Part shown: piece after piece, positions 20,576 to 37,717 of the stretch | Position numbering within the stretch: the stretch's first letter is position 1 | Layout of the letters: the number at the start of each line of letters is the position of its first letter | Assembly: GCA_038062675.1 (NCBI GenBank) | Contig: JBBTWP010000005.1 | Span: forward strand, 43,844-107,843 | Direction: 5' to 3' | From: Patescibacteria group bacterium | GTDB taxonomy: Bacteria; Patescibacteriota; Minisyncoccia; Phycocordibacterales; UBA1550 | DNA: 64,000 nt | The notes under the pieces: model-generated | What the model saw: the letters and a program-made list of their open reading frames with translations, nothing else | Databases searched by the model: none | Told to the model about the DNA's origin: nothing | Position numbers and translations under genes: made by a program

Positions 20576-21717
20576 ATCCCAATAAATGATAGTATCGTAG
20601 CGGCTCGTCTGTCCCATGTATATCTCTGCACATCTTTGCATGCTTGTTCTGCAATACTAGCCGAAAAGTCTTTATTTTTCAAGAGAGACAGTATACCGTT
20701 CAACAGACCATCAATATCTTCATTCTTGACAACAAGAGCGTTGCTTTCATTTAATATTTCTCTCACCGACGGCAGGTCTGAAGTAATAATCGGCACACCG
20801 CTCGCCATATACTCAAAAAGCTTAAGTGGTGACATGTAAAGTGCATAGTGTGGCATATTAGGATAGTTCATCACAAGTACGTCAGACGCTTTCATATACA
20901 TGAATGCTTCTTTCTGGGGAATATGTGTAACGATTTTATAATATTCCTCATCTACTCCTGCTCGCTGAAATACTTTTTTCACCTCCTCGACTTCATTCTC
21001 ATTTATCCCGACGAGAAGCAAGAACGCTTTTGGTAAAGCAGGTAAAACTTTTGAAAAACTAACGATGAGGTCATCGACCCCTTTTGGCTCGCCCATAGTT
21101 TTGTACTTACCAATATAGCCGATAATTTTTTTATCCCAAGGCAAACCTAAACGTCCCCTCAATTCTACTTGATTTTCCCCCATATTGAACTGCTTGATAT
21201 CCACCCCATCCGGCGCAACAAGTATCTTTCCTTTATTTACATCTTTTGTGACGTAAAAATCTTTGAGCCCTTGTGTGATTGAGATAATACCAAGCGCGGT
21301 CTGCAATACGCGAGCAGCAAAGAAATTTTCTTTTTTAGTGTGCGTTTCCCAAAAAATATTCTTTTTGAAGAAACCGATAAGGAACAGCGTCAATTCGTCG
21401 CGGGAATAGATTACTTGGGCATTTTTCGACAAAAGTGTGTAAAAAAATGCAAAAAAAGCAAATGAGGATGTTTGTATCCAGAAGCCGATTCTCCCTAGCA
21501 TAATGAGGTCAAGTGATGGAATTTTAGTAATTGTGAATTTTTTCTCCACCCCATAGTAAACAAAGGGGTCTTCCTTTATTTTGTTGAAGCGCCACGGAAC
21601 AACGAGCTCAACGGTTGCCCCAGCCGTGTTCGCGAAAGCTTCACACATCTTCATAATCTGGATACCGTGTGCTTTTTCTGTGGGCAATCGTATATTTGCG
21701 AGATAAATTAATTTCAT
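20572..21717 (-). CDS. GT4 family glycosyltransferase
   Basis: The N-terminus is MKLIYLANIRLPTEKAHGIQIM. The GT-B C-terminal domain is ...LFEYMASGVPIITSDLPSVREIL. Confidence 0.85.
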   Translation of the reverse strand: MKLIYLANIRLPTEKAHGIQIMKMCEAFANTAGATVELVVPWRFNKIKEDPFVYYGVEKKFTITKIPSLDLIMLGRIGFWIQTSSFAFFAFFYTLLSKNAQVIYSRDELTLFLIGFFKKNIFWETHTKKENFFAARVLQTALGIISITQGLKDFYVTKDVNKGKILVAPDGVDIKQFNMGENQVELRGRLGLPWDKKIIGYIGKYKTMGEPKGVDDLIVSFSKVLPALPKAFLLLVGINENEVEEVKKVFQRAGVDEEYYKIVTHIPQKEAFMYMKASDVLVMNYPNMPHYALYMSPLKLFEYMASGVPIITSDLPSVREILNESNALVVKNEDIDGLLNGILSLLKNKDFSASIAEQACKDVQRYTWDRRAATILSFIGI

Positions 21718-21718
21718 C

Positions 21719-22516
21719 TTATTTTTTGACCTTTACCAGAGAAATGAAGGCTTCTTTTATCAGCCAAATATGATAACAAGCATTATACCATTCATACAAA
21801 AACGGCATCCTCTTCCCTGATCCTCTCATAAATGTTAGCGCGTATTTGATTAAGTACTTCACAAAAATCAAAGAATTACTAAGAAAAAGACCTGAGAACG
21901 TCTTGGGTGTGACCTTCATGGTGTGAATTTGCATTTGGGCGTAGTTGTACCATTTTTTCTTTAGGGTACTGATATCACCCATAGGAACATACTCCGGGTT
22001 TTTCAATATTCCTATTTCGTATCCTTCTTTTACACTGATTCTTTCGTGAATTTTTTTTATGAAACCAAAAGTTGCCGGAATATAGAAAAAACGTAGTTGG
22101 TAATTAGGATACATAGAGGAACGCTCAACAACCTCGCCGTTTACCACATATTTTCTTGGTAATTTATACGCGTAGTGGATGTTATTTTGTTCTTGATTCA
22201 CAATCTCACGCATCTCAGCTACCGCCTCAGGAGAGAGGTATTCATCGCTGTCGATAAAAAGAAACCACGGGTATCTCGCCTGCTTGACCCCCTTGTTGCG
22301 AACTGCTGAGAAATCGTTAATCTTCACCTCTTTTTCTCGTGCATCAGTTTGAGGGATAACGCAGGCACCGTATTTTTCTGCAAGCGCAACCGTCCCGTCA
22401 GTGCTACCGCCGTCAAGAATAATTATATCTTCAAAATCGCGTACACTTTCGAGACAACGCTTTAATGTCTTTTCAGAGTTTAGGGTCAAAATTTCTACAC
22501 TGCAAGGTATTTTCAT
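21719..22516 (-). CDS. GT2 family glycosyltransferase
   Basis: SVEILTLNSEKTLKRCLESV...IIILDGGSTDGT and a DxD motif (FIDSDE). Confidence 0.85.
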   Translation of the reverse strand: MKIPCSVEILTLNSEKTLKRCLESVRDFEDIIILDGGSTDGTVALAEKYGACVIPQTDAREKEVKINDFSAVRNKGVKQARYPWFLFIDSDEYLSPEAVAEMREIVNQEQNNIHYAYKLPRKYVVNGEVVERSSMYPNYQLRFFYIPATFGFIKKIHERISVKEGYEIGILKNPEYVPMGDISTLKKKWYNYAQMQIHTMKVTPKTFSGLFLSNSLIFVKYLIKYALTFMRGSGKRMPFLYEWYNACYHIWLIKEAFISLVKVKK

Positions 22517-22521
22517 AAAAA

Positions 22522-24399
22522 TTATTCCATAAAACGCTTATACCAAATTTGAAAAGTAAAAATTGACCACAGGGTGTTTAGAGCGTACTTTTGTCCTGAT
22601 TGATGATCTTTTAAAATTTTTTGAATTGCATTAAAGTCAAACATATCTTTCGTGCCCACACAATAAGAAGGGGACAAGACTTCTTCAAAATAACCCTTCA
22701 AGTCTCCTCGTATCCATTTCGCTGCAGGGGAAAACCACCCCCATTTTGGCTGATCTAGAACAAAGTCTGGCAAATATGCCGACATCGCCCTTTTGAGGAT
22801 ATCCTTTCCTTTATATCCAGTGCCTGCTTTTCCTATATGGATTCCTTTTCCTCCTATTTTGTATTCTAAAGGGATGCGGTCCGCCAATTCCACCAAACGA
22901 TGATCCAAAAAAGGAACGCGTTGCTCAAGCCCTGAGGCCATAGACATTTTGTCGGACCTCACGAGTGATTCGCTTGGCAACCACGAAAGCAGGTCAGTTC
23001 GCATAAACTGCCTCGTGAAATTCTTTTTATCTACGGTATTAAAATATAGTTTTTTATACCATTCTGCAGTCGCGGCAGGATTGTTGTATTCACGGCAAAG
23101 AAACAACTCTATCTGATCTTCTTTCTGAGAAAGGAAATTCAAATACCGAGAAACTCCTGGTGGTGTGTTTATTTTTTCATAGAGACTACTTTTGCCCACT
23201 ATATCAAAGATAATTTCTGTTACTATATTTTTTCTTAAAAACTTTGGTATTTTTTGGAAACGATCTATTAAATAATTATAATAATAGCGTTCATACCCCC
23301 CGAATAATTCATCTCCCCCATCCCCACCCAACACAACCGCTACCTGTTTTGAAGCTTCACGTGCAAGCAAAAGATTTACTGCCTGTACATGGTTTGAGAT
23401 TGGCTCATCCATGTGGTATATGGAGTCCTCCAGACTATTTTTAATATCTTTCGGCGAAAGAATATATTCGTTGTGAATTGTTCCAAAATGATGGGCTGTT
23501 TTTCGTGCAACTTTTGCATCATTATTATACTTCTCTGCCTGTGCTGTTTCCTCAAATCCAACGGAGAATGTTTTTATATTTTTTGAGAATGAGCTAGCTA
23601 CGCCGGCAATAATTGTTGAATCGATGCCACCAGACAAAAATACTCCTACAGGACGATCGGAGACCAACTGCATCTTGATTGAGTCAGTAAGTAAATTTGA
23701 GATTTCAGACTCTAAATATTCCCTGTCATAAATGAGTGGTTTCTCCTCCATCTCCCAATATCGCTTAATTTCCATTTTTCCTCTTTCAACAACAGCGTAA
23801 TGCCCTGGCTCAAGTTTGTAAACATTTTCCCAAATAGTAAGAGGGGCAGGAACGTATAAAAGGCGAAAGTAAATATTTAATGCATCTTTATTTATAGTTT
23901 TATCTATCTTGTGCTTAAAAATAGCTTTTGCTTCTGAAGAAAAGATAAATACTCCCTCCTTATGGTAATAATAAAGTGGTTTTATGCCTACTCTGTCGCG
24001 CGCCAAAAATAACCGGCCTGTTTGATTGTCCAATATAGCAAAAGCAAACATCCCATTGAATTTCTCAAGGCAATCACTCCCCCATTCTTCGTATGCACAC
24101 AAAATTACTTCTGTATCAGTATCTGACACAAAGACATACCCTTTCGCAATAAGTTCTTTTCTTATATCTAAAAAATTATAGATTTCTCCATTATAAACAA
24201 TGGTATATCGCTTATCCTTGCCATGCATTGGTTGATGACCAGCTTGGCTTAAGTCAATAATCGACAAACGATTATGGCCGAGGGAGTAATTTGCAGACAA
24301 AAACACGCCCGCATCGTCCGGACCACGATGCTTCGTTGTTTCATTCATTTCGTGAATCAAGCCCTTATCTATGAAATTGAATCCGTTTATGCCACACAT
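22522..24399 (-). CDS. asnB: asparagine synthase (glutamine-hydrolysing)-family amidotransferase
   Basis: N-terminal nucleophile MCGINGF, a GATase-2 domain, then an ATP-pyrophosphatase PP-loop (VGVFLSGGIDSTIIAG). In glycan clusters such AsnB-like enzymes commonly amidate uronic acids. Confidence 0.9.
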   Translation of the reverse strand: MCGINGFNFIDKGLIHEMNETTKHRGPDDAGVFLSANYSLGHNRLSIIDLSQAGHQPMHGKDKRYTIVYNGEIYNFLDIRKELIAKGYVFVSDTDTEVILCAYEEWGSDCLEKFNGMFAFAILDNQTGRLFLARDRVGIKPLYYYHKEGVFIFSSEAKAIFKHKIDKTINKDALNIYFRLLYVPAPLTIWENVYKLEPGHYAVVERGKMEIKRYWEMEEKPLIYDREYLESEISNLLTDSIKMQLVSDRPVGVFLSGGIDSTIIAGVASSFSKNIKTFSVGFEETAQAEKYNNDAKVARKTAHHFGTIHNEYILSPKDIKNSLEDSIYHMDEPISNHVQAVNLLLAREASKQVAVVLGGDGGDELFGGYERYYYNYLIDRFQKIPKFLRKNIVTEIIFDIVGKSSLYEKINTPPGVSRYLNFLSQKEDQIELFLCREYNNPAATAEWYKKLYFNTVDKKNFTRQFMRTDLLSWLPSESLVRSDKMSMASGLEQRVPFLDHRLVELADRIPLEYKIGGKGIHIGKAGTGYKGKDILKRAMSAYLPDFVLDQPKWGWFSPAAKWIRGDLKGYFEEVLSPSYCVGTKDMFDFNAIQKILKDHQSGQKYALNTLWSIFTFQIWYKRFME

Positions 24400-24423
24400 G
24401 ATTGCTTTGTATTATACAATGAG

Positions 24424-25176
24424 TTAATCATTATCCCCAAAACTTGGTTTAGAAAAAATATCGTCCAGACTTGCCTTTCGTGCAACTACACCTATTTGCT
24501 GCCCAGATTGAGGAAAAATCTTCATAAAGAGCTTGGCAAATATATTTCTGGTTTTCCCAACATAAGCAATATTCTCTATTTTGAATCCGTGCATATTGAG
24601 AATTTGCCGAAGCATTGCCGGTCCAAAAAATATTTTATGCTGTGGTTGAGTAAGCAACCTTTTTTCAGTATTACGCAACACCAAAAAATTGTCTTTTGTT
24701 TCATTGTAGGTTAATTCTGACACATCACCTAACGAATCTTTTTTTCTAAAATAAATACGAAATACATTGATATAGCTAAAAACATTAGGGGTATCTATAA
24801 TCAGCTGTCCATCATCCTTAAGTATGCGCGCGCACTCCGAAATAATTTCTCCTGGCCTCCACGAGTGTTCAATAATTTCTCCGGCATAAATACAATCAAA
24901 CATCTTGTCTGGCACAACTCCCGAAAGATTGTGCAGATCTCCGATGTATTGATTCTTAATACCAAGCTTTTCCGCCAGATTCTTGTTAACATCAAGCCCA
25001 AAATATTCACCGCCATTGGATTCAACCATTTTTTCTAAATCAATATTTTTTTCGCCATCGCCCAAATTGCCAACATCTAATAGTTTCACTTTCTTCCCAT
25101 TCAAAAAATGAGCGACGTACTCCGTCCTAGACGGAAAAAATAGTGCTTCTTTTATACTAAAAAAAATATTTCTCAT
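24424..25176 (-). CDS. class I SAM-dependent methyltransferase
   Basis: Motif I is LLDVGNLGDGE (degenerate), followed by a DxxxxxGxxE-like segment (YAGEIIEHSWRPGEII). Low-GC. Confidence 0.7.
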   Translation of the reverse strand: MRNIFFSIKEALFFPSRTEYVAHFLNGKKVKLLDVGNLGDGEKNIDLEKMVESNGGEYFGLDVNKNLAEKLGIKNQYIGDLHNLSGVVPDKMFDCIYAGEIIEHSWRPGEIISECARILKDDGQLIIDTPNVFSYINVFRIYFRKKDSLGDVSELTYNETKDNFLVLRNTEKRLLTQPQHKIFFGPAMLRQILNMHGFKIENIAYVGKTRNIFAKLFMKIFPQSGQQIGVVARKASLDDIFSKPSFGDND

Positions 25177-25190
25177 ACAGTAAATTATTA

Positions 25191-26246
25191 TTATTTAAAC
25201 CTAGTTAATATCTCCACAATTCTCTTAGCTGTTTTACCGTCCCATAAAGGTATCGCTGTTTTTTGTTGACCTATGCGACGCTTCTTATAAGCCTTAAGGA
25301 TGTCTGCCTTCCGCGTGCCAGCAACAATATTTGTGCCGCAAGTCACCGTAATTGGCCTTTCTGTCTCATCGCGCAGTGTTATGCATGGGGTTCCCAGAAA
25401 ACTTGATTCCTCTTGCACTCCACCAGAGTCTGTAAGAACAAGCTTTGCATTTTTTTGATAAAAAAGAGATTCCTTATAGGAAAGTGGCGGGAGTAAGGAA
25501 AAAATCTTTTTCATTCTTTCGGTTAACTTAAACTTCTTTGCCATTTTTTCTGTTCGCGGATGAAGGGGTAAGTAGACCTTGTTGTTCTGCGCGATAATTT
25601 CAAGCGCATCGAGTATCCCACTGAACCTTTCTTTGTCATCCACGTTTTCCGCTCGGTGAAGCGTGCAGAAATAAAATTCTTCATTTGTTTTTTTCACTTC
25701 AGGCAAAAACATTTTAAGAGTATCAATCATGATGTTGCCAACAAAATAAACAGCACCATTTATTTTTTCTTTCTTTAAATTTTCTATTCCATTTTCTTCA
25801 GTAACAAAAAGCACATCAGATATCTGGTCAACAATAATCCGATTGATTTCCTCTGGCATTGTTCGGTTAAATGAACGTAGCCCTGCCTCTATGTGTGCAA
25901 GGGGAATCCCCATTTTGTTTGCCACAATCGCCCCAGCAAGTGTTGAATTAACATCACCCACCACTGCAACAAAAGAAGGTTTTTCTTTTTCAAAAATCTT
26001 ACCGAGCTCTGCTACGATTGCCGAAAATTGCGCTATCGCAGATGTGCGGGGAGGGTTAATAGTATAATGTGGCTTAATCCCGAATTCCCTTAGCAAATCT
26101 TCTGACATCTCTGTAGTGAAATGTTGCCCAGTATTTATAAGTGAATGCTTAATGTTTAATCTTTTTAATTCATGACAAAGAGGCGCAACTTTCATAAAAT
26201 TTGGTCTTGCGCCCGCTATTATCATAATGTTGTCTTTATTTTTCAT
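25191..26246 (-). CDS. UDP-N-acetylglucosamine 2-epimerase, second WecB-family paralog
   Basis: MIIAGARPNFMKVAPL...VVGDVNSTLAGAIVANKMGIPLAHIEAGLRSFNRTMPEEINRIIVDQISD is alignable throughout with the 19472-20575 paralog but clearly diverged. Confidence 0.88.
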   Translation of the reverse strand: MKNKDNIMIIAGARPNFMKVAPLCHELKRLNIKHSLINTGQHFTTEMSEDLLREFGIKPHYTINPPRTSAIAQFSAIVAELGKIFEKEKPSFVAVVGDVNSTLAGAIVANKMGIPLAHIEAGLRSFNRTMPEEINRIIVDQISDVLFVTEENGIENLKKEKINGAVYFVGNIMIDTLKMFLPEVKKTNEEFYFCTLHRAENVDDKERFSGILDALEIIAQNNKVYLPLHPRTEKMAKKFKLTERMKKIFSLLPPLSYKESLFYQKNAKLVLTDSGGVQEESSFLGTPCITLRDETERPITVTCGTNIVAGTRKADILKAYKKRRIGQQKTAIPLWDGKTAKRIVEILTRFK

Positions 26247-26255
26247 GACGGAGCG

Positions 26256-27263
26256 CTAATTATCTTCTGCGATTAATTTGCCTATTTTGCCAACAAGAGA
26301 CTTGAGGCTGTGCCCCTCTTCAACAATATCCCTCAGTTGATTCGCCTTATATCGTGACAATTCTCCAGAAAGGATAAACTTTGCAATATCTTCAGGGTTC
26401 TCACTATTGGGACAAATCGAAAGTCCGATAGCTTTTGAATTTCTTGGGGTAGTAACTGGGTATATACCAAAAATCATACCCTCAAGCATTGTTTTATCTA
26501 TCGTTTCTCGGGCCATGTTAATCATCACTCTATATGATGGGTAAATATTTTTTAGGTTGCCCATAGAAACGGGTCCTTTGAAGATCACTCTTTCCCTAAG
26601 ACCCTCTTTTTTTACCAATGCCTCGAGTTCCGCGTAGTAATCCTTCTCCACATCTCTACCATAGACAGTAAGTGTATATTCCTCGGGGAGATACTTTAAC
26701 GTAAGAATTCCTAGCTCTAATCGTTTAGAGCGACAAATACGGTGAACAGAAACAAGGTCAAAGGGAGATGCATTATTTTCTTTAGGAATACCGTCTTTCC
26801 AAAAATCAATATCTATGCCATGCCCGACTATGGTCTTTTTTGGATTACCTTCGTATTGAGGTAAGCTCTGTGGTGTCGCTGCAAACATTCTCTTACATAA
26901 AATACCAGATATCCACAAATGTATGTGCGTAGTATAATGAGTGTACCAAAGATAGATTGGCTTACGCGAAAGGAACCAATACCAGCCACCAAGAGTGACA
27001 TATTCTGGATTCATGTGCACAAAGACCCTGTCATAGTCAAGAGAAAATATTAATTTTAAAAAAATAAAAATTCTTTTGATTTTTTTAAAGCCTTTTTCCT
27101 TTCCCAAAGAAAATACTGGGAACGAGCCATCAAAATCCCCTTTTTCAAGACATATAACCTTAACTGATGCACCTTGATTAATAAACTCCTTGATCCACAA
27201 AATAACAAAAGCTAAGTCATCGTCGTTCTCGTTGATTTTCTGAGTAATAAAAAGTAGCCGCAT
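26256..27263 (-). CDS. glycosyltransferase (GT-B-like), low-GC
   Basis: 335 aa. Its N-terminus MRLLFITQKINENDDDLAFVILWIKEF... is homologous to the remnant ORF at 27282-27542. A C-terminal GT-B-like region follows. Confidence 0.65.
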   Translation of the reverse strand: MRLLFITQKINENDDDLAFVILWIKEFINQGASVKVICLEKGDFDGSFPVFSLGKEKGFKKIKRIFIFLKLIFSLDYDRVFVHMNPEYVTLGGWYWFLSRKPIYLWYTHYTTHIHLWISGILCKRMFAATPQSLPQYEGNPKKTIVGHGIDIDFWKDGIPKENNASPFDLVSVHRICRSKRLELGILTLKYLPEEYTLTVYGRDVEKDYYAELEALVKKEGLRERVIFKGPVSMGNLKNIYPSYRVMINMARETIDKTMLEGMIFGIYPVTTPRNSKAIGLSICPNSENPEDIAKFILSGELSRYKANQLRDIVEEGHSLKSLVGKIGKLIAEDN

Positions 27264-27281: not shown

Positions 27282-27542
27282 TTACAAATATTTTACCACA
27301 GCACATACGCTCCTCAAACAGATCGACCTTTTTGAATTTCCGAGCCCACCTCTTTCTTGCGCGAATAATTCCTTACCCAACGAAAACACGCGCACGTTCT
27401 TCGGCAGATCATACTCACCAACCCCAAGTGCAATGACGGTCACCTGCTCTGCGTGCTTCGCAAACTCACGAATCCACCCATGGAAAAATCCGAGGATATC
27501 GTCATTCTGGTCGACTTTTTGGGTGAGGATAAGGAGTTTCAT
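27282..27542 (-). pseudogene. N-terminal remnant (about 60 aa homologous) of a glycosyltransferase paralogous to 26256-27263
   Basis: MKLLILTQKVDQNDDILGFFHGWIREFAKHAEQVTVIALGVGEYD...FSLGKE aligns with MRLLFITQKINENDDDLAFVILWIKEFINQGASVKVICLEKGDFD...FSLGKE, then goes out of frame. GC is about 50%, versus about 36% for the intact paralog. Confidence 0.7.
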
Positions 27543-27545
27543 TTT

Positions 27546-27815
27546 TTATTCAAAAAGGTCGGAATGGGTGCCAGTACGTACAAGTATAATATCATTATCA
27601 TCGTATTTCCAAATCAAAAGCCAATCAAATTCTATGTGGCATTCCCAGCACCCTTCATATTCACCATGTAACTTGTGCGGACGAAACCTATCAGTAAGCC
27701 GTCCATCATTTTCAAGAATAAGCACGACTGCTATCAGTTTTTCAATATCCTTGCCTCTACGTTTTATACGACGGATATCCTTATCAAACTGCGGTTTTGT
27801 AATACTGCGACGCAT
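27546..27815 (-). CDS. yafQ: type II toxin, YafQ/RelE-family mRNA interferase
   Basis: 89 aa. ...HKLHGEYEGCWECHIEFDWLLIWKYDDNDIILVRTGTHSDLFE matches the YafQ C-terminal catalytic region (H...EC HI..DWLLIY...RTG.HSDLF). Confidence 0.88.
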   Translation of the reverse strand: MRRSITKPQFDKDIRRIKRRGKDIEKLIAVVLILENDGRLTDRFRPHKLHGEYEGCWECHIEFDWLLIWKYDDNDIILVRTGTHSDLFE

Positions 27816-27818
27816 ATT

Positions 27819-28085
27819 TTAAAGTGAGCGCATGTGCTTTGCAAAATCCTCAAAAGTGTCAAATGACATTAGATTTTTCTCGGATCGAGCTTCTTCAATC
27901 GCCTTGCGCGTTTCTCTGTTGGGCATACTCAGAGAAAAAGGAATTTCTTTATCATTGGCAATGCGTCGGTAAAATACGTTAATCGCTTCTGAGGGAGATA
28001 TACCGATCTGGGACAATACCATCTCTGCCTTCTTTTTTACTGATGGCTCTATGCGAGCACGAACGAAAGCTGTTTTTGTAGTCAT
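27819..28085 (-). CDS. dinJ: type II antitoxin, DinJ/RelB family
   Basis: MTTKTAFVRARIEPSVKKKAEMVLSQIGISPSEAINVFYRRI is the DinJ ribbon-helix-helix N-terminus. It lies 4 nt upstream of yafQ. Start is taken at ATG 28085. Confidence 0.85.
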   Translation of the reverse strand: MTTKTAFVRARIEPSVKKKAEMVLSQIGISPSEAINVFYRRIANDKEIPFSLSMPNRETRKAIEEARSEKNLMSFDTFEDFAKHMRSL

Positions 28086-28092
28086 ATGTATA

Positions 28093-28114
28093 TTGTAGCA
28101 CATATGTGCTACAA
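28093..28114. promoter_or_regulatory. perfect 22-bp palindromic operator upstream of dinJ-yafQ
   Basis: ttgtagcacatatgtgctacaa lies 8 nt upstream of the dinJ start. This is typical of TA autoregulatory operators bound by the RHH antitoxin. Confidence 0.6.
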
Positions 28115-28122: not shown

Positions 28123-29808
28123 TTACAAATATTTTACCATATATGTTCCCTCGAGCTGGTATCCTTGTTTGCGATAGTATTCGCGCACGCCGATACCCGA
28201 GATAACCGCGAGTTTTTTGTACCCTGCTTCGCGCGCAATGCGTTCTGCCTCCAAGAGGAGTCGTTTCCCAAACCCCATGTGCTGACTTTGTGTTCCCACC
28301 TCCCCTACTTGCGCCATGCGCCCATACGTGTGAAGCTCGCGCACGAGCGCCGCACCCTGGAGCACCTCAAGCCCTGTCCCCACAAACTCCTGCCCATGAT
28401 TTTTCGGCAACCGCAAGCGCAAAAACGACGCGAGCTTGCCTTCATTCGCCTCTTCAAACGAAAGGAAAATTTCCCGCCCACTTCTCGTACGATACTCTTT
28501 CACCGTCAGTGGAAATTTCTCGAGTTCGACTTCCATCCCGCGCACTTCACGACAGCGAATGCACTTGCATCGCCAATTATTTTTCTTCATATCGTTGAAC
28601 AACCACTGGCGCAGATTTGAAACTTTACTTCCTGCTTGAATGTAGGTCGCAGGAATATCGCGAATCACCCGAATGATGCGCACGTATTTTGGGATTTGTT
28701 TTTTTGCACCCGCAAGCACACTCATGAGCTCCTCATCCGTGTACGGTTTAAATTTCCCCGCTTTCCAAATATCAAAAAGTTCACTTCCTTCGAGCACCAT
28801 GCAGGGATACATCTTAATCATGTCGGGATGAAAATCCTCACTCGAAAAAAGCTCGCCAAACATTTCAATATCACGCTGGGGCGTGCTCCCCTCCAAGTTT
28901 GGCATCATGTGGTACACAATCTTAAATCCCGCATTGCGCAAAAGCTCGGTTGCTTCTTTCACCGCACCAATCTTCATGTCGCGCTTGGTGAGCTCGAGCA
29001 CATCGTCGTCGAGATGCTGCACACCAATCTCCACCTTGGTCACCCCGAGGCTACGCAACCGCTCAAGCTCCTTTGGATTGATATAGTCTGGACGCGTCTC
29101 AATCGAAAGCCCAATGAGGCGCGTTCGTGCAGTTTCGTTTTCGTGCATCATCTCAGCGAATGTTTTTTGCCCCTTCGGCGTCTGCATCTCGGGGGGCACG
29201 TCAAAGTTATTGCATGCACGGTAACACTCCGCAAGAAATTCTTCCTGATACTTCGGATGATAAAAACTCCACGTACCGCCAATGACAATCATTTCGATTT
29301 TGTCGGTCTCGTGGCCGTTCATACGAAGCGCGAGCAAGCGACTCGTGATCTGGTCGTACGGATCAAAATCGTTCGCAAGAGCACGCGCCGCCGCCGGCTC
29401 TTTTGAAAGATAGCTCTTGGGCATGTTTGCTTCGGTAGGGCAATACGTGCATCGCCCTGGGCACGGGTAGGGCTTCGTAAGAAGTGAGACCACCGCAACC
29501 CCTGAGTTGCTCCGCGTTTTGAGCTTCTTAAGCACCAGCTCTGCGTTGGAATTCTTCTCTTCTTCTCCCGCCTCCACAAGCGCCTTATAGAACGCCAAGA
29601 GCTCGGCATTGGTAGGCACATGTGACCCATAAAACTCCTCAGAAATGGCCTCCAAGGGCATCAATTGCCCCGCAGGAAGCACTTTATTCTCCCGTGCGTG
29701 AATCTGCCTCCGCAGATCCAAAATACGCCCATAGAGCGCCGGATCAACCATGATTTTCCGCTTCAGGTTCTGCAGGTCCTTTTCGGTTTTGATATCAGTA
29801 AAAAGCAT
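28123..29808 (-). CDS. Elp3-like radical SAM / GNAT acetyltransferase (Elongator catalytic subunit homolog)
   Basis: Radical SAM cluster motif CPGRCTYCP (C-x3-C-x2-C) and a TIM-barrel rSAM region (LSIETRPDYINPKELERLRSLGVTKVEIGVQHLDD). C-terminal GNAT fold (QHMGFGKRLLLEAERIAREAGYKKLAVISGIGVREYYRKQGY). About 55% GC. Confidence 0.85.
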   Translation of the reverse strand: MLFTDIKTEKDLQNLKRKIMVDPALYGRILDLRRQIHARENKVLPAGQLMPLEAISEEFYGSHVPTNAELLAFYKALVEAGEEEKNSNAELVLKKLKTRSNSGVAVVSLLTKPYPCPGRCTYCPTEANMPKSYLSKEPAAARALANDFDPYDQITSRLLALRMNGHETDKIEMIVIGGTWSFYHPKYQEEFLAECYRACNNFDVPPEMQTPKGQKTFAEMMHENETARTRLIGLSIETRPDYINPKELERLRSLGVTKVEIGVQHLDDDVLELTKRDMKIGAVKEATELLRNAGFKIVYHMMPNLEGSTPQRDIEMFGELFSSEDFHPDMIKMYPCMVLEGSELFDIWKAGKFKPYTDEELMSVLAGAKKQIPKYVRIIRVIRDIPATYIQAGSKVSNLRQWLFNDMKKNNWRCKCIRCREVRGMEVELEKFPLTVKEYRTRSGREIFLSFEEANEGKLASFLRLRLPKNHGQEFVGTGLEVLQGAALVRELHTYGRMAQVGEVGTQSQHMGFGKRLLLEAERIAREAGYKKLAVISGIGVREYYRKQGYQLEGTYMVKYL

Positions 29809-29837
29809 ATTCTGGTAAGATACTTACTATACTACGT

Positions 29838-30533
29838 ATGCGCCAAGAATATGCAAATAAAATCCTCGAGCAATCGCGCTCTGGGTACGAAACTATCGCC
29901 AGCGACTTCTCGCGTACCCGTGGCACATTTTGGCAAGAGCTGATGTTTGTTTACGACATGGTGCCACCCACGTCACGCATCCTCGACATCGGCTGTGGCA
30001 ATGGACGCTTTTTAAGCGCACTCAAAGACGACACGGTAGACTACACCGGCGTTGATTTTTCCAAAGGACTCATCGACATCGCAAAGGAACGCTACCGAGA
30101 ACGGCCACACGCCACATTTCAAACCGCCGACGCACTCGCCCTCCCTTTCTCCAACCACTCCTTCGACATAGCCGTATCGTTCGCCGTCCTCCACCACATT
30201 CCCTCGCGCGCGTATCGCATTCAATTTCTCAAAGAGGCCGCGCGCGTCATCAAACCGGGCAGCACCATCATCCTCACCGCGTGGAATGTCTGGCATTCCC
30301 GCCCATGGACCGTACTAAAATTCGCGCTTAAAAAATTACTCGGTCAAACACACACCGACGTTGGCGACGCACTCCTCGACTTCGGCAAAGAAAAAAACGT
30401 GCGCTTTGTGCACGCCCTCACCGCGCGCGAAATCCGCTCTCTCGCACGCGGTGCTGGCCTCACCATCACCCGCCTCGAGAAAATCCGCCGCCCGAGTGGT
30501 GAAGAAAATTTCTTTGTGGTACTCCAAGCGTAA
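29838..30533 (+). CDS. class I SAM-dependent methyltransferase (possibly Trm9/SmtA-like)
   Basis: Motif I is ILDIGCGNGRFLSAL, then VDFS, then DIAVSFAVLHHIP. Divergently transcribed from the Elp3-like gene with only 29 bp between the start codons. Confidence 0.8.
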   Translation: MRQEYANKILEQSRSGYETIASDFSRTRGTFWQELMFVYDMVPPTSRILDIGCGNGRFLSALKDDTVDYTGVDFSKGLIDIAKERYRERPHATFQTADALALPFSNHSFDIAVSFAVLHHIPSRAYRIQFLKEAARVIKPGSTIILTAWNVWHSRPWTVLKFALKKLLGQTHTDVGDALLDFGKEKNVRFVHALTAREIRSLARGAGLTITRLEKIRRPSGEENFFVVLQA

Positions 30534-30666: not shown

Positions 30667-31935
30667 ATGAGACACTTGCAAAGGTGGTTTTTTGTTTTTA
30701 TGGTGAGTATGTGGTTCGCATCCTTGACACACGCCGACCAGATGACCTACCAACCGGGACCAGAAGGAACGGATGTTTGGATTACCAACACCTATGACTA
30801 TGGGAGTGACTATGGTGTTGATAACGACAAACTTGAGGCGGGCGGCTGGGGCGATGAGTATCGCTTTCTCTGGAAACCCGATTTCACGGGTTTCCCGCAA
30901 AATGCAACCTCGGCTGCTTTGTGGATGTTTCCTTACCCTCGCGGAGATGCTTCAACGCCAGTAAGCATGGCTGTTGATTTGATGACTACGCCATGGAACG
31001 AGGACACTGGGTGGTACAATACGGTAATGAATGGAATACCAGTTGGTGTTCTTTCAGCTCCAACACCAGGGCAATGGTACGGTATAAACATTACTCAAAT
31101 CTACAATCTGTGGAAGGCGGGAACGTACGCCAACCACGGCTTTAGATTTAGGCCGACGGGAATCAACAATCAGTTCTCGCAATTTTTGAGTTCTGATTTT
31201 TGGTACGGTCCGTATCGCCCGAAGGTTGTGGTTACCTACAAGGGCGCGGATTTACAATTTCCTCTTGCGAAACCGAGACCGGCGGGCTTTATTGGGCCAA
31301 TCATTCCTGTGTTCCTTTCACCGTATGCGGCACAGATTAATTCTGTGTTGGACCATTCGTTGACCACGGAAGCGTATTGCAAAGATGATGTCATTGTTGC
31401 ATATACGGGAGAGCGTGCGGAGGAGAAGTATGGAACATCTGGATGGATTGGTACGCCTTCGTCCACAAGATGTTCGGGCAAGACTTTAAACGGATACCGA
31501 CAAGACACCGTCGGAACACCTTTTGTTGTGAATGGAAACTATGGTGGAGGGGCATTTTTGTTCTATGACGGGCATGATGGGTATGACTTTCAAGCCGAGA
31601 ATGGAACAGATGTTCATGCTGCTGCGGATGGAAAAGTGTACAATTCAAACGCTGTTGGGGAAGAGAATGTGAGGATCGAGCATCCGAGCGGATATGTTAC
31701 TCAGTATTGGCACATGCCAAAACGATATGTAGTAGAGGGACAACTTGTTTCAAAAGGTCAAAAAATCGGTATCGTAGGAAAAGGGCACCTGCACTTTACG
31801 GTGAAGAAAGGTAAGCTTTCAGAACCAGCAAAACTGCAACTCGTCGACCCCTACGGCTGGAAAGGCGAGTATGGCACGGATCCACTCAAAGTTGACGGTA
31901 AAGACAATGCTTGTCTGTGGGCGGTTTGTCAGTAG
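30667..31935 (+). CDS. secreted M23-family (LytM-type) metallopeptidase with N-terminal accessory domain
   Basis: Signal peptide (WFFVFMVSMWFASLTHA). The C-terminal LytM domain carries HxxxD (YDGHDGYDF) and HxH (GHLHFTV) zinc ligands plus GQKIGIVG. RBS AAAGGGG lies 7 nt upstream. Confidence 0.85.
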   Translation: MRHLQRWFFVFMVSMWFASLTHADQMTYQPGPEGTDVWITNTYDYGSDYGVDNDKLEAGGWGDEYRFLWKPDFTGFPQNATSAALWMFPYPRGDASTPVSMAVDLMTTPWNEDTGWYNTVMNGIPVGVLSAPTPGQWYGINITQIYNLWKAGTYANHGFRFRPTGINNQFSQFLSSDFWYGPYRPKVVVTYKGADLQFPLAKPRPAGFIGPIIPVFLSPYAAQINSVLDHSLTTEAYCKDDVIVAYTGERAEEKYGTSGWIGTPSSTRCSGKTLNGYRQDTVGTPFVVNGNYGGGAFLFYDGHDGYDFQAENGTDVHAAADGKVYNSNAVGEENVRIEHPSGYVTQYWHMPKRYVVEGQLVSKGQKIGIVGKGHLHFTVKKGKLSEPAKLQLVDPYGWKGEYGTDPLKVDGKDNACLWAVCQ

Positions 31936-32016
31936 TTCCTTTGTGTTGTTGATGTTAAAAAGTTAAGCAATCATTCAATCTCCTTGCCGTTCGCGGTGAG
32001 GGGATTTTTTTTGTAA
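31842..32016. repeat. 175-bp direct repeat, copy 1 (3' end of M23-peptidase gene plus terminator region)
   Basis: Identical to 32719-32893 over 175 nt: tcgtcgacccctacggctggaaaggcgagtatggcacggatcc...gcggtgaggggattttttttgt. Confidence 0.9.
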
Positions 32017-32027
32017 ATATTTCCTTG

Positions 32028-32666
32028 TTATTCGAGGAATCTGAAGGTGGAGAGGACTGCATCAAGGAGTTTTTGTGATTCACTATTACTGAGAATATTG
32101 AACATAAAAGACTTTTCTTTGCGAAAAAAACTTGCCCGAGAAACACTCATGTTGTCATAATACTTTATTTTTTCTCCGTTCAAAATACTCTCTCTAGAAA
32201 TAATTTTCTCTTCTACTCCTAAATTTTTCCAATAGGTTGTTGTTGCCGCTCTTTCCCAGACTTCCTTAGAGGTAACTCTAAATCCCAAAGATGGTGGATC
32301 GTATCTCTGTCCAGTTAGTAGTTCTTGGTGAATGCTCAGAACAGGGCTACTGCATTCGAAAATTTGGGAGCTCATTGGCATATCGTCTTCGTAATTCCAT
32401 GATGTATCATACAAAAACCACCCCTTCGGATACTTAAACTCATACCCATACTTCTCATTTCGGCACACCGGCCAACTTGCGATTGCTTCAGGAGAAAGGT
32501 CGGGGAGTTGAATGGGTAGTTTTTCATATTCCGACAATGGTTCCACTGTTGTTTTTGCAGGTTCAGGAATCGGCTCAACAGATATTTGATTCTGTGAAAT
32601 CACCACCCCCACGACGACAACTGCCACAATAATCCCCCCGAGTAGTATTTTTTTCTTCTTTTCCAT
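32028..32666 (-). CDS. membrane-anchored hypothetical protein, paralog A (N-terminal 80 aa identical to paralog B)
   Basis: MEKKKKILLGGIIVAVVVVGVVISQNQISVEPIPEPAK...CRNEKYGYEFKYP, then a divergent middle and a related C-terminus (...LSTFRFLE). Confidence 0.7.
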   Translation of the reverse strand: MEKKKKILLGGIIVAVVVVGVVISQNQISVEPIPEPAKTTVEPLSEYEKLPIQLPDLSPEAIASWPVCRNEKYGYEFKYPKGWFLYDTSWNYEDDMPMSSQIFECSSPVLSIHQELLTGQRYDPPSLGFRVTSKEVWERAATTTYWKNLGVEEKIISRESILNGEKIKYYDNMSVSRASFFRKEKSFMFNILSNSESQKLLDAVLSTFRFLE

Positions 32667-32718
32667 AAAATGACTTTAGCATGTTTTGTTTGATATCCCA
32701 ACCACACTACACCCCAGT

Positions 32719-32893
32719 TCGTCGACCCCTACGGCTGGAAAGGCGAGTATGGCACGGATCCACTCAAAGTTGACGGTAAAGACAATGCTTGTCTGTGGGC
32801 GGTTTGTCAGTAGTTCCTTTGTGTTGTTGATGTTAAAAAGTTAAGCAATCATTCAATCTCCTTGCCGTTCGCGGTGAGGGGATTTTTTTTGTG
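32719..32893. repeat. 175-bp direct repeat, copy 2 (orphan copy of peptidase 3' end plus terminator)
   Basis: Exact copy of 31842-32016, 877 bp downstream. It is not part of any intact ORF. Confidence 0.9.
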
Positions 32894-32905
32894 AGTATTT
32901 TAGAA

Positions 32906-33553
32906 TTAGTCGAGGAATTTGAAGGTGGAAATAATCGCATTCATGAGTTTTTCTCCTTTGAGATTAGGTACTGTCAAAAAAATAAATTTGTCTTTTTTGT
33001 AGAAAATCCCTGCATTAATAGAAAATATAGCAATCTGATATTTTACTGTTTTTCCATGGAGTACAAATTCTTTGAAGATAACCTCTTTTTTCTTTAGCAG
33101 TCCAAATTCTTTTACAGAGTTTGCCACTATGTCCCAATCATCTATGTCCCTTATCGAAACCCCAATAGATAGAGGAGCAAAACTAGAATCAGCTAACCCC
33201 CCTTGAGAAACTATTATCATTAATCTATCACATTCGAGAATCTTAGGGACGGGTAACACATTGTTTCCGCGCATATCATAAAGTTCTTCTTCATCATGAA
33301 CCGTCCACCCCCTCGGATACTTAAACTCATACCCATACTTCTCATTTCGGCACACCGGCCAACTTGCGATTGCTTCAGGAGAAAGGTCGGGGAGTTGAAT
33401 GGGTAGTTTTTCATATTCCGACAATGGTTCCACTGTTGTTTTTGCAGGTTCAGGAATCGGCTCAACAGATATTTGATTCTGTGAAATCACCACCCCCACG
33501 ACGACAACTGCCACAATAATCCCCCCGAGTAGTATTTTTTTCTTCTTTTCCAT
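32906..33553 (-). CDS. membrane-anchored hypothetical protein, paralog B
   Basis: Same first 80 codons, nucleotide-identical and including about 20 nt upstream of the ATG. The middle is diverged and the C-terminus ...ISTFKFLD is homologous to paralog A. Confidence 0.7.
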   Translation of the reverse strand: MEKKKKILLGGIIVAVVVVGVVISQNQISVEPIPEPAKTTVEPLSEYEKLPIQLPDLSPEAIASWPVCRNEKYGYEFKYPRGWTVHDEEELYDMRGNNVLPVPKILECDRLMIIVSQGGLADSSFAPLSIGVSIRDIDDWDIVANSVKEFGLLKKKEVIFKEFVLHGKTVKYQIAIFSINAGIFYKKDKFIFLTVPNLKGEKLMNAIISTFKFLD

Positions 33554-33670
33554 AAAATGACTTTAGCATGTTTTGCATAGTGTTGCCATCTTAATTTTCG
33601 ATGTAGTATTTCGTCTACTCAAAAAACCTTACTCCATGAGCCTAGCTTCGAAATCTTTACCGGCACAAAA

Positions 33671-34658: not shown

Positions 34659-35765
34659 CTACCCCAGCGCATCCTCCCACGACTTTTTGTAGAGGGCAAG
34701 GTATTCTGTTTTGGTCAAAAGTACGGGGGGTTTTTGTTTAAACTTTATTTCGTGAGCGGCGACTTTTAGAAGCACTTGAGCGAGAGCACTAGCGTCTCCC
34801 ACCGTCACCACGAATCCATTCCCACCATTTTCGATTACTTCTTTTGCGCATCCGACATTTGTGGCAATCACAGGACATCCAACCACAAGCGCCTCGACAA
34901 TGGTCATTCCATACCCTTCATAGTTTGAGGTGAGGAGAAAAGCATCAGCTGTTTTCATATACGATGCAACATCATCCTGCCACGGCAGGAGCACCACATT
35001 TCGTGAAAGCCCGTGCGCCTGCACCAAACTTTTTATCCATGCCTCTTCGGATCCTTCACCCACAACAACGAGCCCAACGCGCGGATATTTTCCCAACACT
35101 TCGCCAAACGCCTCGAGTGCAAGCGGAATATTTTTCTCAACGGATAACCTCGACGCCATGAGAAAATGTGTACTGAACTGCAGATATTCTTTTTTAATAT
35201 CACGAGATACCGGAGCATTCTTTATGCGTTCCACATCCACAAAAATAGGGAGAACAGTGACCATCACTTCTCTACGAACCAACCCCTCAACAGACTGCTT
35301 GATACGCGTCGACACTACACGCACCGCATGAGCACGTGGCAACAAGAACTTTGCAAGAACGACACGCGCACGATTCATGAACGACTCTCGTGCAAAATGT
35401 GGACTCAAAAAATCCGTATGAATCTGCAAATGTAATTTCGCTCCCAATATTCGCGCAATCAAAAAAGCGGTAAGACCTGTCTCGAAGGGATCTTGCGCGG
35501 TCACCACATCAACATGAACTCCTTGTTTCTTGAGTGTGACGACTTGCCTCAGAGCAGCTGGAATATATCCGAAGCGTGTGCGAGCATTTGTAGGATACAA
35601 AAAAATATTTGGTGGAAATGACTGCGCAGCTACACCCGCCGACCGTTTTGCAAAAACAATAATCCGGAGCTCATCTGCGAGACGACCATACTCAAGCAGG
35701 CGCGACCGCACCGCGCTCCCCTCTTCAAATACTTTGCGGTCCAACGAAACAGAAAGAATATTCAT
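34659..35765 (-). CDS. GT4 family glycosyltransferase
   Basis: GT-B C-terminal domain: FLMASRLSVEKNIPLALEAF...LLTSNYEGYGMTIVEALVVGCPVIATNVGCAKEVI. Confidence 0.88.
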   Translation of the reverse strand: MNILSVSLDRKVFEEGSAVRSRLLEYGRLADELRIIVFAKRSAGVAAQSFPPNIFLYPTNARTRFGYIPAALRQVVTLKKQGVHVDVVTAQDPFETGLTAFLIARILGAKLHLQIHTDFLSPHFARESFMNRARVVLAKFLLPRAHAVRVVSTRIKQSVEGLVRREVMVTVLPIFVDVERIKNAPVSRDIKKEYLQFSTHFLMASRLSVEKNIPLALEAFGEVLGKYPRVGLVVVGEGSEEAWIKSLVQAHGLSRNVVLLPWQDDVASYMKTADAFLLTSNYEGYGMTIVEALVVGCPVIATNVGCAKEVIENGGNGFVVTVGDASALAQVLLKVAAHEIKFKQKPPVLLTKTEYLALYKKSWEDALG

Positions 35766-35786
35766 AGTATCAGCAGTATAAAGCCA

Positions 35787-36902
35787 TTACTTCATCCACG
35801 CAAGTTCATAGGCGAGTTGCTTCAACATACGCTCATCGCTAAAGTCTTTCACGCGTGCCTGTGCGGACTCGGCGAGTTTTTTCGCAAACAAAGGGTCGTC
35901 ATGAAGCAGGGCGATTGCTTGAGATAGTAAGCCGACATTATTCGGTGGAACAAGTGTGCCATTTTTTTTGTTTTCAATAATTTCAGTATTACCACCGACC
36001 GCAGTCGTGACCACTGGCGTACCCAAAGCCATGACTTCAAGCAATTGATGGGAAAAACCCTCGTACGAAGTATTGAGCACAAACACATCAGCAGCCTTAA
36101 GATACGCAAACAATTCTTTCTGGGAAAGTTTTCCGACTAAACTGATACGATCTTCAAGGTGAAGAAGTTTTATCTTTTCACTGAGCATTTTTTTGTCCGG
36201 TCCGTCTCCAATAATAAAAAGGTGTACGTCAGGGATTTTTTGCAGGAGTGTGGGCATCATTTCCACAAGCTCCACGAATCCTTTCCATGGGACCAACCTC
36301 CCCACCGACACAATGACATGCCCGCTCATACCAAGTTTCTTGCGCGCGTCAACTTTTTCTTCTTGTATTACCGGCACGTCAAACCCATTATAGATTACTG
36401 CAATTCTTTCAGCAGGAACCCCCCATGCCGTCACAATTTTTTTAAGGTATTCACTCGGCACAATGACACGGTCAGAAGCGCACGCGATTCGACACTGCAC
36501 ACGCTTTAAACTTCTCACCAACCTTGGGTACTCTTTGTGCTTTAAAACAAATGCGTCGAGTGTATCCACGACCCCTGCACGTTGCACCCCCTGCTCCCAA
36601 GCATAGTCCCCCACAATCTTGACGTAAAATTTCTTGCGAAATAACTTTGCCACAAGCATTGCAGGAAGCCCGACAGAAACAGGGTCCTGTGCATAAACGA
36701 GGTCAGCGCGCACACTGCGCACCAATACCCAGAAAAAATACACAACGTGTCGTAAAATTTTTGGCAACCAAAGAAATGTTCCAAAATTCACAACCACCAC
36801 ATCAAACCCATATGAAGGAAGTTTGTCGTGAAGGAGTTTGCTATACGTCGCCGGCCCCCCTATCTGGGGTGGATAAATTCCGGTTGCAATAAGTATCTTC
36901 AT
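35787..36902 (-). CDS. GT4 family glycosyltransferase
   Basis: The start is set at ATG 36902 (MKILIATGIYPPQIGGPATY). C-terminal ...VLNTSYEGFSHQLLEVMALGTPVVTTAVGGNTEII. The track start at 37001 adds 33 non-GT residues. Confidence 0.85.
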   Translation of the reverse strand: MKILIATGIYPPQIGGPATYSKLLHDKLPSYGFDVVVVNFGTFLWLPKILRHVVYFFWVLVRSVRADLVYAQDPVSVGLPAMLVAKLFRKKFYVKIVGDYAWEQGVQRAGVVDTLDAFVLKHKEYPRLVRSLKRVQCRIACASDRVIVPSEYLKKIVTAWGVPAERIAVIYNGFDVPVIQEEKVDARKKLGMSGHVIVSVGRLVPWKGFVELVEMMPTLLQKIPDVHLFIIGDGPDKKMLSEKIKLLHLEDRISLVGKLSQKELFAYLKAADVFVLNTSYEGFSHQLLEVMALGTPVVTTAVGGNTEIIENKKNGTLVPPNNVGLLSQAIALLHDDPLFAKKLAESAQARVKDFSDERMLKQLAYELAWMK

Positions 36903-37027
36903 ACTTATGAAGATACCATTGTTGGGAAGTTTTGAGAAGCATTGACGTTGCGCGCATAACATGCAAGAATCAAAAAAGAACCTGTCGTTGAACCTTTTCA
37001 CTCAAGAAGCAACAAAGGAGATATGTC

Positions 37028-37666
37028 ATGACACGAGTTATTAAAGCAATTGTTTTTGACTACAACGTCTTAGTCAACCACGATAACCGAAAAGTCTCCG
37101 CAATATTGGGAACATGGAGCTCTCAGAAGCTGAGCAGCGACCAAATACATCACGAGGTTTTTGATAGTCCGAAGCTATCTATATTTGAACGAGGAGAGAT
37201 CCCGCATGAAAGCTTCTACAACATTGTCATGTCCGCAATACTTGCCATGGACAAGAAACCAACTCTCGCAGAGTTTAGTGACCTATGGGGCAATGTTTTT
37301 AGTCAACGGAACAATGCAGACAATATGCTCGAACGACTCCATGTCCCTGACGCCATATTCTTGATGGGTAATGTTGACAAAATCCGCTCAGAACACTTAC
37401 GACAAATCCCGGCTATTGATACTTTCTTTGAGGGACAGTCGAGGTTAATTCTTTCTTGCGACAACAAGTCGCGCATGCCAGAGATTGGATTATGCTCTAC
37501 AGCAATCAAGCGTACCCGATGTGTCCCCAGCGAAATTTTATACGTTGGGACAAACCTTAAGTACACGGAACGATTTGAGCGATGCGGAACTGACATCCTT
37601 TTACATGACCCTCAACAACCGCTGACGTCCCTCATAAAGGAACTCCGCGCATTCAATGTTTTGTAA
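37028..37666 (+). CDS. HAD-like hydrolase (divergent)
   Basis: AIVFDYNVLVNHDN is a motif I-like D-x-N variant. A Rossmannoid core follows, with ...ILYVGTNLKYTERFERCGTDIL in the motif III/IV region. Confidence 0.5.
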   Translation: MTRVIKAIVFDYNVLVNHDNRKVSAILGTWSSQKLSSDQIHHEVFDSPKLSIFERGEIPHESFYNIVMSAILAMDKKPTLAEFSDLWGNVFSQRNNADNMLERLHVPDAIFLMGNVDKIRSEHLRQIPAIDTFFEGQSRLILSCDNKSRMPEIGLCSTAIKRTRCVPSEILYVGTNLKYTERFERCGTDILLHDPQQPLTSLIKELRAFNVL

Positions 37667-37684
37667 CAAAACAAGTTAGAGCAA

Positions 37685-37717
37685 GGCGGTCGTTTCATAC
37701 GACCGCCCTATTTTTTG
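37685..37717 (+). terminator. rho-independent terminator
   Basis: ggcggtcgtttcatacgaccgcc hairpin followed by ctattttttg. Confidence 0.85.

Follow-up and report, generated by a model that had tools for sequence, protein, structure and literature searches.

A divergently paired Elp3 and Trm9-like methyltransferase in a Patescibacteria bacterium: a predicted two-step module for tRNA wobble-uridine modification

We consider here a stretch of 64,000 nucleotides from a bacterium of the Patescibacteria (candidate phyla radiation, CPR), contig JBBTWP010000005.1, positions 43,844 to 107,843, referred to throughout as the window. Two of its genes lie head to head, one encoding the radical S-adenosylmethionine (SAM) protein Elp3 and the other a class I SAM-dependent methyltransferase. 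On the basis of sequence comparisons it is likely that these genes constitute a two-step module, of the archaeal and eukaryotic type, that would act on the wobble uridine, U34, of tRNA with 5-methoxycarbonylmethyluridine (mcm5U) as the predicted product. A module of this kind had been suggested from the letters of the DNA alone. That original prediction is supported by the grouping of the methyltransferase with Trm9, by the conserved pairing of the two genes and by the intact radical SAM cysteines of Elp3.

The Elp3 gene (28123..29808, minus strand) codes for 561 residues with radical SAM and lysine acetyltransferase (KAT)/GNAT domains; the family model TIGR01211 and relatives in the PDB lead to its assignment as a predicted tRNA U34 carboxymethylase. 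The methyltransferase gene (29838..30533, plus strand) codes for 231 residues and, from its match to Methyltransf_11 and the behaviour of a family profile, is assigned as a Trm9-like class I SAM methyltransferase, predicted to act on the carboxyl group of 5-carboxymethyluridine (cm5U) at position 34. The start codons of the two open reading frames (ORFs) face apart with 29 bp between them (29809..29837), so the divergent pair, with the Elp3 size and the spacing originally proposed, is borne out. The pair is only half annotated in public records. The Elp3 protein is identical to NCBI entry MEK7538918.1, from a Patescibacteria metagenome-assembled genome (MAG), where the name Elp3 is already given, and the methyltransferase is MEK7538919.1, labelled merely 'class I SAM-dependent methyltransferase'.

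In the proposed pathway a stand-alone Elp3 would bind tRNA, cleave SAM at its [4Fe-4S] cluster and use acetyl-CoA within its KAT domain to attach a carboxymethyl group to C5 of U34, forming cm5U. This step is suggested by the family membership of the protein and by its intact catalytic residues. The Trm9-like enzyme would then move the methyl group of SAM onto the cm5U carboxylate to give mcm5U, a prediction that draws on the conservation of the Trm9 substrate-binding residues and of the pairing with Elp3. Should the cell 2-thiolate these tRNAs as well, mcm5s2U would result. The genes being head to head with a very short spacer, their expression is probably coupled through overlapping divergent promoters.

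Elp3 and its active sites

The larger protein is, by its sequence, unambiguously an Elp3. Its score with NCBIfam TIGR01211 is 545 bits (cutoff 350), the match having an E-value of 1.4e-163 and covering residues 78-561. Pfam places Radical_SAM on residues 116-311 and Radical_SAM_C on residues 328-408; the score of Acetyltransf_1 on residues 506-550, 18.9 bits, is slightly below the cutoff of 20.7. The nearest relatives in the PDB are archaeal MinElp3 (6ia8, E 2e-119), bacterial DmcElp3 (5l7j, E 2e-111) and eukaryotic Elp3 (E about 1e-90). The full Elp3 architecture claimed for this protein at the outset is confirmed by the TIGR01211 score above cutoff, the cysteine triad of CPGRCTYC and a C-terminal GNAT domain with its pocket residues.

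Conservation was counted in the best 120 of 7264 matches at E ≤ 1e-20. These are database clusters of 58-100% identity, nearly all full length, and those that carry a name are Patescibacteria-type MAGs. The original prediction described bacterial Elp3 homologues as sparse, a statement that fails for this lineage given the number of matches; Elp3 is common in Patescibacteria. The radical SAM [4Fe-4S] motif CPGRCTYC (C116-x3-C120-x2-C123; 29440..29463, minus strand) is invariant in all 120 and no loss of its cysteines was found among these close homologues. The same degree of conservation applies to the linker cysteines of CKCIRC (C414, C416 and C419; 28552..28569, minus strand), which correspond to a three-cysteine zinc motif of the central linker kept across bacterial and archaeal Elp3 (PMC6367351). 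Alignment to 6ia8 places MinElp3 residues K150, K266, Q461, H463 and Y517, the roles of which are described in PMC6367351, at K170, K296, E491, H493 and Y544, again invariant in 120 of 120 homologues. Three of these, E491, H493 and Y544, together with the equally invariant Q509-x2-G-x-G, mark the acetyl-CoA pocket of the KAT/GNAT domain (28126..28521, minus strand). A glutamate at the position of MinElp3 Q461 is also found in DmcElp3 (E386).

The protein begins with an extension of 93 residues (29530..29808, minus strand), and alignments to PDB entries start only at residue 65-94. The length of the extension is kept, with nearly all 120 homologues spanning the full protein, and over residues 1-30 the query residue is matched in 52% of them (mean per position). 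There are 10 Lys or Arg among the first 42 residues; the whole extension is not net basic (12 Lys or Arg against 15 Asp or Glu). In MinElp3 the N-terminal extension drives tRNA binding (PMC6367351) and by analogy that of the window protein is likely a tRNA-binding arm.

Among the comparison loci, numbered L001 onwards, the iron-sulfur motif separates bacterial from archaeal proteins. Within L001-L132 it is CPGxCxxC (Cx3Cx2C) in 36 of 36 bacterial Elp3 sequences and CPHGKCTFC (Cx4Cx2C) in 7 of 7 archaeal ones. Two Elp3 homologues of 647-651 residues, P0032 and P0106, one of them from a Nomurabacteria MAG, carry an additional GIY-YIG nuclease domain (PF01541), perhaps the result of a homing endonuclease having inserted into, or fused with, the Elp3 gene.

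The methyltransferase as a Trm9 relative

General family models place the methyltransferase in a large and diverse group. It matches Pfam Methyltransf_11 with an E-value of 7e-25, and Methyltransf_25 and many others match too. The best NCBIfam match, UbiE/MenG (TIGR01934), scores 62.3 bits where the cutoff is 158; of the best 25 families among 50 matched, not one reaches its cutoff, and BioC and UbiE/MenG are far below. Neither the Pfam nor the NCBIfam matches include a Trm9-specific model. More discriminating is a profile made from 16 members of the family (A1). Searched against 177,635 PDB sequences it gives Trm9 of Yarrowia lipolytica (5cm2_Z) as the top match, with 95.6 bits and an E-value of 2.4e-26, the next match scoring 85.2 bits. 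The reverse comparison used phmmer with yeast Trm9 as query and ORFs of at least 120 residues from the window and L001-L051, later L001-L133. The methyltransferases paired with Elp3 score 30-92 bits (the window's 63), Trm9-like query loci also match, and no other class I paralogue exceeds 15 bits. In the PDB the best non-Trm9 relative of yeast Trm9 reaches just 29 bits. Some homologues of the methyltransferase already carry the names TRM9 or ALKBH8 in JGI annotation.

The residues with which Trm9 recognizes its substrate provide a more specific comparison. In the yeast enzyme (ScTrm9) Y18, R29, D72, H115, H116, W145, W168, R241, Y243 and N271 have been implicated, by mutagenesis or model, in catalysis or in recognition of cm5U or uracil (PMC4678810). 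Eight of the ten are identical in the window protein and invariant in 16 of 16 Elp3-paired orthologues, namely Y17, R28, D73, H119, H120, W149, R189 and N224. Seven of the eight ScTrm9 counterparts were mutated in that study, Y18 being the one that was not; R29, H116 and R241 were assigned to positioning of the carboxylate, H115, N271 and W145 to recognition of uracil. As a control, 13 paralogous methyltransferases of the same loci match between none and four of the eight positions. With 5cm2_Z as the top profile match, the eight alignable functional residues kept and UbiE/MenG and BioC below their cutoffs, the enzyme groups with Trm9 and not with families that act on substrates other than tRNA, and its identification as a Trm9 relative is supported by sequence.

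The conserved positions are spread along the plus-strand gene. The N-terminal helix motif Y17-x6-FS-x-TR28-x3-W32 (29886..29933) is invariant in 16 of 16 orthologues and corresponds to Y18...FSQTR29...W33 of ScTrm9, in which R29 is proposed to position the cm5U carboxylate (PMC4678810). It is followed by the SAM-binding motif I, DIGCGNG (residues 50-56; 29985..30005), with D50, G52, C53 and G54 invariant; the GCGNG reported originally forms part of it. H119-H120 (30192..30197) matches the ScTrm9 pair H115-H116, responsible for catalysis and the contact with uracil O4, and W149 (30282..30284), also invariant, matches W145, which stacks on U34. Towards the C-terminus the invariant R189 (30402..30404) is equivalent to R241, which contacts the carboxylate, and N224 (30507..30509), found in 16 of 16, to N271, which makes a bidentate contact with uracil O2 and N3 (roles from PMC4678810).

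An AlphaFold2 (AF2) model of the methyltransferase, with a predicted local distance difference test score (pLDDT) of 93, displays the alternating strand-helix pattern of the class I fold. When compared with the PDB using Foldseek, 5cm2_Z gives the lowest root mean square deviation (2.6 Å) and the highest target-normalised TM-score (0.84) among the 50 matches listed. A PDB search with residues 1-62 alone, aimed at the N-terminal helix, returned nothing above noise because the crystallised Trm9 is without that region.

Conservation of the pair and competing explanations

The pair is conserved in dozens of uncultured bacteria. A metagenome scan starting from the methyltransferase yielded 80 loci, 58 of them with at least 2 kb of upstream sequence, and Elp3 lies upstream in 50 of these 58. 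The orientation is divergent in all 73 loci that hold both genes. In 81 sources matching both genes the median distance between the 5' ends of the two alignments is 109 bp, and in 64 of them it does not exceed 150 bp. Spacers for which both starts are clear measure 19-114 bp. No conserved third gene, Trm112 and thiolase included, was found around the pair, with no family present in more than 16 of the 73 loci. The larger apparent neighbour families are antisense shadow ORFs inside the two genes or lineage-specific neighbours.

A scan of genome contigs with the Elp3 protein returned mostly distant relatives and one close one, and close relatives were fetched by way of contigs encoding homologues. 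Among close relatives of Elp3 (62-79% identity; MAGs of Yonathbacteria type and other Paceibacteria-like ones) the divergent methyltransferase accompanies the gene in L044/45, L046/47 and L051. In L049 an additional methyltransferase gene lies between Elp3 and the Trm9-like gene. In L050 (1485-3965) the two are separated by bAvd (PF22296), an RVT_1 reverse transcriptase and small ORFs, a cassette that resembles a diversity-generating retroelement. Further afield, the pair is present in 10 of 10 MAGs labelled Peribacteria or Gracilibacteria in which Elp3 is 44-49% identical. A MAG labelled Chloroflexi at NCBI has the methyltransferase orthologue divergent and 19 bp from an Elp3 of 547 residues, extending the conservation that the original prediction had called for. 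Pair neighbours vary by lineage: the window's clade has glycan genes at this place, the other clade GatB, WecG and signal peptidase. In a neighbour-joining tree (without support values) the Trm9-paired Elp3 sequences cluster, including two that have lost the neighbour, apart from the code-25 CPR and archaeal Elp3 sequences.

The spacer itself (29809..29837) cannot accommodate two separate full promoters, and a consensus scan found no sigma-70 consensus promoter in or around it. A -10-like TATACT is present on the plus strand at 29828-29833, four nucleotides before the methyltransferase ATG, with -10-like hexamers on the other strand facing the Elp3 start. The sequence ATACTAC occurs again 4-5 nucleotides ahead of the methyltransferase ATG in the aligned spacers of L044, L053 and L101 (22-35 bp) and L046 (114 bp). 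The recurring -10-like element ahead of the methyltransferase, with the hexamers that face Elp3, hints at overlapping divergent promoters and at leaderless or near-leaderless mRNAs. The shared bidirectional promoter originally proposed is hypothetical.

Several observations weigh against a Trm9 function or against the generality of the module. With the single methyltransferase sequence as a phmmer query, Trm9 is placed about 30th in the PDB, and Foldseek with the AF2 model puts 5cm2_Z 11th by E-value. The yeast Trm9 query was verified indirectly: its length and 17 residue identities agree with PMC4678810, and it scores 243 bits against 5cm2_Z. The PDB result of the family profile does not depend on this sequence. 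Two of the ten functional residues are not kept. At the position of Y243 the window's clade has Val or Leu and the Peribacteria-type clade Tyr; W168, which sits in a eukaryote-specific insert, is without a counterpart. Eukaryotic and archaeal Trm9 require a Trm112 partner, and a weak test (phmmer with an Escherichia coli YcaR sequence and a motif scan, covering 64 kb of this genome) revealed no Trm112-like ORF in either the window or the other loci. The close relatives L048 and L001 are without an adjoining methyltransferase, and a Trm9-like gene is absent within 6 kb of Elp3 in code-25 CPR and archaeal (DPANN and Methanosarcinales-labelled) loci.

The single-sequence PDB search, the NCBIfam and Pfam searches and the Foldseek ranking by E-value cannot separate Trm9 from other class I methyltransferases. 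Weak methyltransferase matches in seven code-25 CPR loci, located some 5 kb upstream of Elp3, were considered as displaced partners and rejected, since they are not Trm9-like and score 14 bits or less to Trm9.

Do both enzymes act on tRNA with a different chemistry or product? The outcome might be 5-carbamoylmethyluridine (ncm5U) or cm5U, the target another atom, nucleotide or RNA, or the methyltransferase might be inactive for want of a partner absent from this genome. The changes at Y243 and W168 in the window's clade and the missing Trm112, weak as that test is, could be read in this way. So could the code-25 CPR, DPANN and Methanosarcinales-labelled loci, since the many lineages without a nearby Trm9 indicate that Elp3 can work without an adjacent methyltransferase. 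Moreover trm9 mutants of yeast and Haloferax volcanii do not accumulate cm5U (PMC3110198; PMC6144793). In the yeast mutants ncm5U builds up instead, and these observations show that the pathway branches. We nevertheless judge a different product to be unlikely, as the residues assigned to the carboxylate (R29, H116 and R241 in ScTrm9) and to uracil (H115, N271 and W145) are all invariant, and the close linkage to Elp3 across lineages is consistent with a shared substrate.

Is the methyltransferase instead a small-molecule, quinone (UbiE/MenG-like) or glycan O-methyltransferase of a polysaccharide locus, its adjacency to Elp3 meaningless? NCBIfam and Pfam offer at best generic or UbiE-like names, and in the window and several relatives the pair lies among glycosyltransferase, epimerase and other Methyltransf_11 genes. 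However, all NCBIfam matches are far under cutoff (62 against 158 bits for UbiE/MenG) and the paralogues that do belong to glycan loci are without the Trm9 residues and unmatched by Trm9. In addition the pair persists beside GatB, WecG and signal peptidase and in Chloroflexi, and adjacency to Elp3 in 50 of 58 loci is no coincidence. This explanation is very improbable and largely refuted.

That the Elp3 homologue acts on a target other than tRNA, as a protein acetyltransferase or on a metabolite, with the methyltransferase next in that pathway, is hardly credible: Elp3 was historically proposed as a histone or protein acetyltransferase and the surrounding locus is not translational, but Elp3 from bacteria, archaea and eukaryotes is activated by tRNA and not by peptides (PMC6367351), the catalytic and tRNA-related features of the window Elp3 are all intact and its partner retains the uracil-recognition residues.

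Genomic context and relation to known pathways

The remaining window is typical of a candidate-phyla bacterium, with SecA, a sigma-70 factor, MurB, Mur ligases and a release factor. Genes for glycosyltransferases, epimerases and flippase follow one another in a long series. Loci for cell-surface glycans surround the pair repeatedly within the window's clade (11440-27263 and 34659-42940 of the window; L044, L046 and L048-L051), with no functional link evident. These loci contain GT1, GT2 and GT4 glycosyltransferases, UDP-GlcNAc 2-epimerases, asparagine synthase, flippase, UDP-glucose dehydrogenases and several other Methyltransf_11 genes.

Directly downstream of Elp3, on the minus strand, is a YafQ toxin (27546-28103; PF15738, E 5e-31) and RelB antitoxin (27282-27542; PF04221, E 3e-15) pair. 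An ORF of 86 residues beside it resembles an N-terminal fragment of the adjoining glycosyltransferase (26256-27263), which suggests that an insertion split or duplicated the glycosyltransferase gene. Immediately downstream of the methyltransferase (30667-31935, plus strand) is a gene for a secreted-looking protein of 422 residues with DNRLRE/CBM96-like and C-terminal M23 peptidase domains. A tandem duplication of about 880 bp spans 31841-33575, its ends conserved (271 nucleotides at 100% and 234 nucleotides at 93%) and its middle diverged. The paralogues it contains (32028-32666 and 32906-33553) are identical over the first 80 or so residues, including a membrane-anchor-like segment, differ in their C-terminal domains and have no Pfam match. 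At greater distance, a TrwB/TraG-like coupling protein adjoins a Lamin-tail/PKD protein (43647-46947, minus strand) in synteny with L046, and a phage-tail-fibre-like protein of 1354 residues (58906-62970, minus strand) combines HylP hyaluronidase and Peptidase_S74 endosialidase-chaperone domains.

The base composition of the pair had been described as the GC-richest coding stretch of the window, at about 55%. This is correct in part. The pair has the highest GC content at third codon positions (GC3) in the window, 0.59 for Elp3 and 0.63 for the methyltransferase against 0.51 or less for other ORFs. The region 28123-30533 as a whole is 51.8% GC and not about 55% (Elp3 50.9%, methyltransferase 54.9%, window 43.4%), and an ORF at 63031-63942, with 55.2%, is as GC-rich as the methyltransferase. 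In the two nearest genomes (L044 and L046) the pair is likewise 7-10 GC points above its flanks. Horizontal transfer was considered as a general cause of the excess and is unsupported. Across 54 loci of 23-64% GC the composition of the pair tracks that of the flanks, with a mean difference of -0.003, and the excess is confined to the window's sub-clade. Such tracking fits long residence in these genomes and not repeated recent transfer. Within the sub-clade the excess may reflect either unusually AT-rich glycan and toxin-antitoxin flanks or entry of the pair from a relative of about 50% GC.

A close parallel is with the eukaryotic Elongator and Trm9-Trm112 or ALKBH8-TRMT112, for which the same chemistries are predicted here. 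The domain architecture and catalytic residues of Elp3 are shared, as are the Y...FSxTR...W helix, the His-His pair, W145, R241 and the C-terminal N271 motif of Trm9. The differences are that Elp3 in the window stands alone, with no Elp1, 2, 4, 5 or 6 expected, and that the methyltransferase is without the W168 insert, has Val for Y243 and has no Trm112 found with it. The bacterial genes are physically paired whereas the eukaryotic ones are not.

In archaea too Elp3 is found alone, with Trm9-Trm112, and among solved structures the window Elp3 is closest to archaeal MinElp3. Archaeal Trm9-Trm112, from H. volcanii, makes mcm5U (PMC6144793), and that paper cites an earlier note of Elp3-Trm9 gene clustering in Sulfolobus solfataricus. 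The system described here is distinguished from the archaeal one by its bacterial host, by Cx3Cx2C in place of Cx4Cx2C, by the separate cluster that window-type Elp3 sequences form in the neighbour-joining tree and by the strictly divergent, short-spacer layout, documented here for bacteria. DmcElp3 of Dehalococcoides mccartyi (5L7J and 5L7L) is also a stand-alone bacterial protein with the same radical SAM-KAT fold, the zinc cysteines and a glutamate at the Q461 position; it is without the N-terminal extension (PMC6367351), for which the window Elp3 has 93 residues.

The MnmE-MnmG(-MnmC) and CmoM pathways address the same C5 position of U34 and serve the same decoding purpose with unrelated enzymes and chemistry. 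CmoM, a class I methyltransferase, converts cmo5U to mcmo5U by methyl-esterification of a carboxylate on the wobble uridine and is a functional analogue of Trm9. None of MnmE, MnmG or CmoA/B is visible within the 64-kb window.

To our knowledge mcm5U and its makers, Elp3 and Trm9, are regarded as an archaeal and eukaryotic feature, and work on bacterial Elp3 has centred on its use as a model for structure (DmcElp3). PMC6367351 calls bacterial Elp3 rare, and a 2026 paper places Elp3 in 'numerous bacteria' (PMC13315578). We found no literature, within an incomplete coverage of journals, linking Elp3 to Patescibacteria, CPR or Parcubacteria, or describing a bacterial Elp3-Trm9 pair.

The conserved bacterial pair leads to a concrete and testable prediction of the end product. 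Comprising two genes that a foreign host can express, it offers a means to study the pathway without the six-subunit Elongator, and it provides a natural setting in which to ask whether Trm9 is able to work in the absence of Trm112. The assignment would permit re-annotation of hundreds of CPR genes now called 'class I SAM-dependent methyltransferase'. More tentatively, many Patescibacteria and some Chloroflexi could decode with mcm5U34 by means of a vertically inherited, Trm112-free Elp3-Trm9 module, which may even replace MnmE/MnmG; we put this forward as a possibility, and a somewhat doubtful one. If such lineages do lack MnmE/MnmG, they would clearly exemplify the displacement of one pathway by another in reduced genomes.

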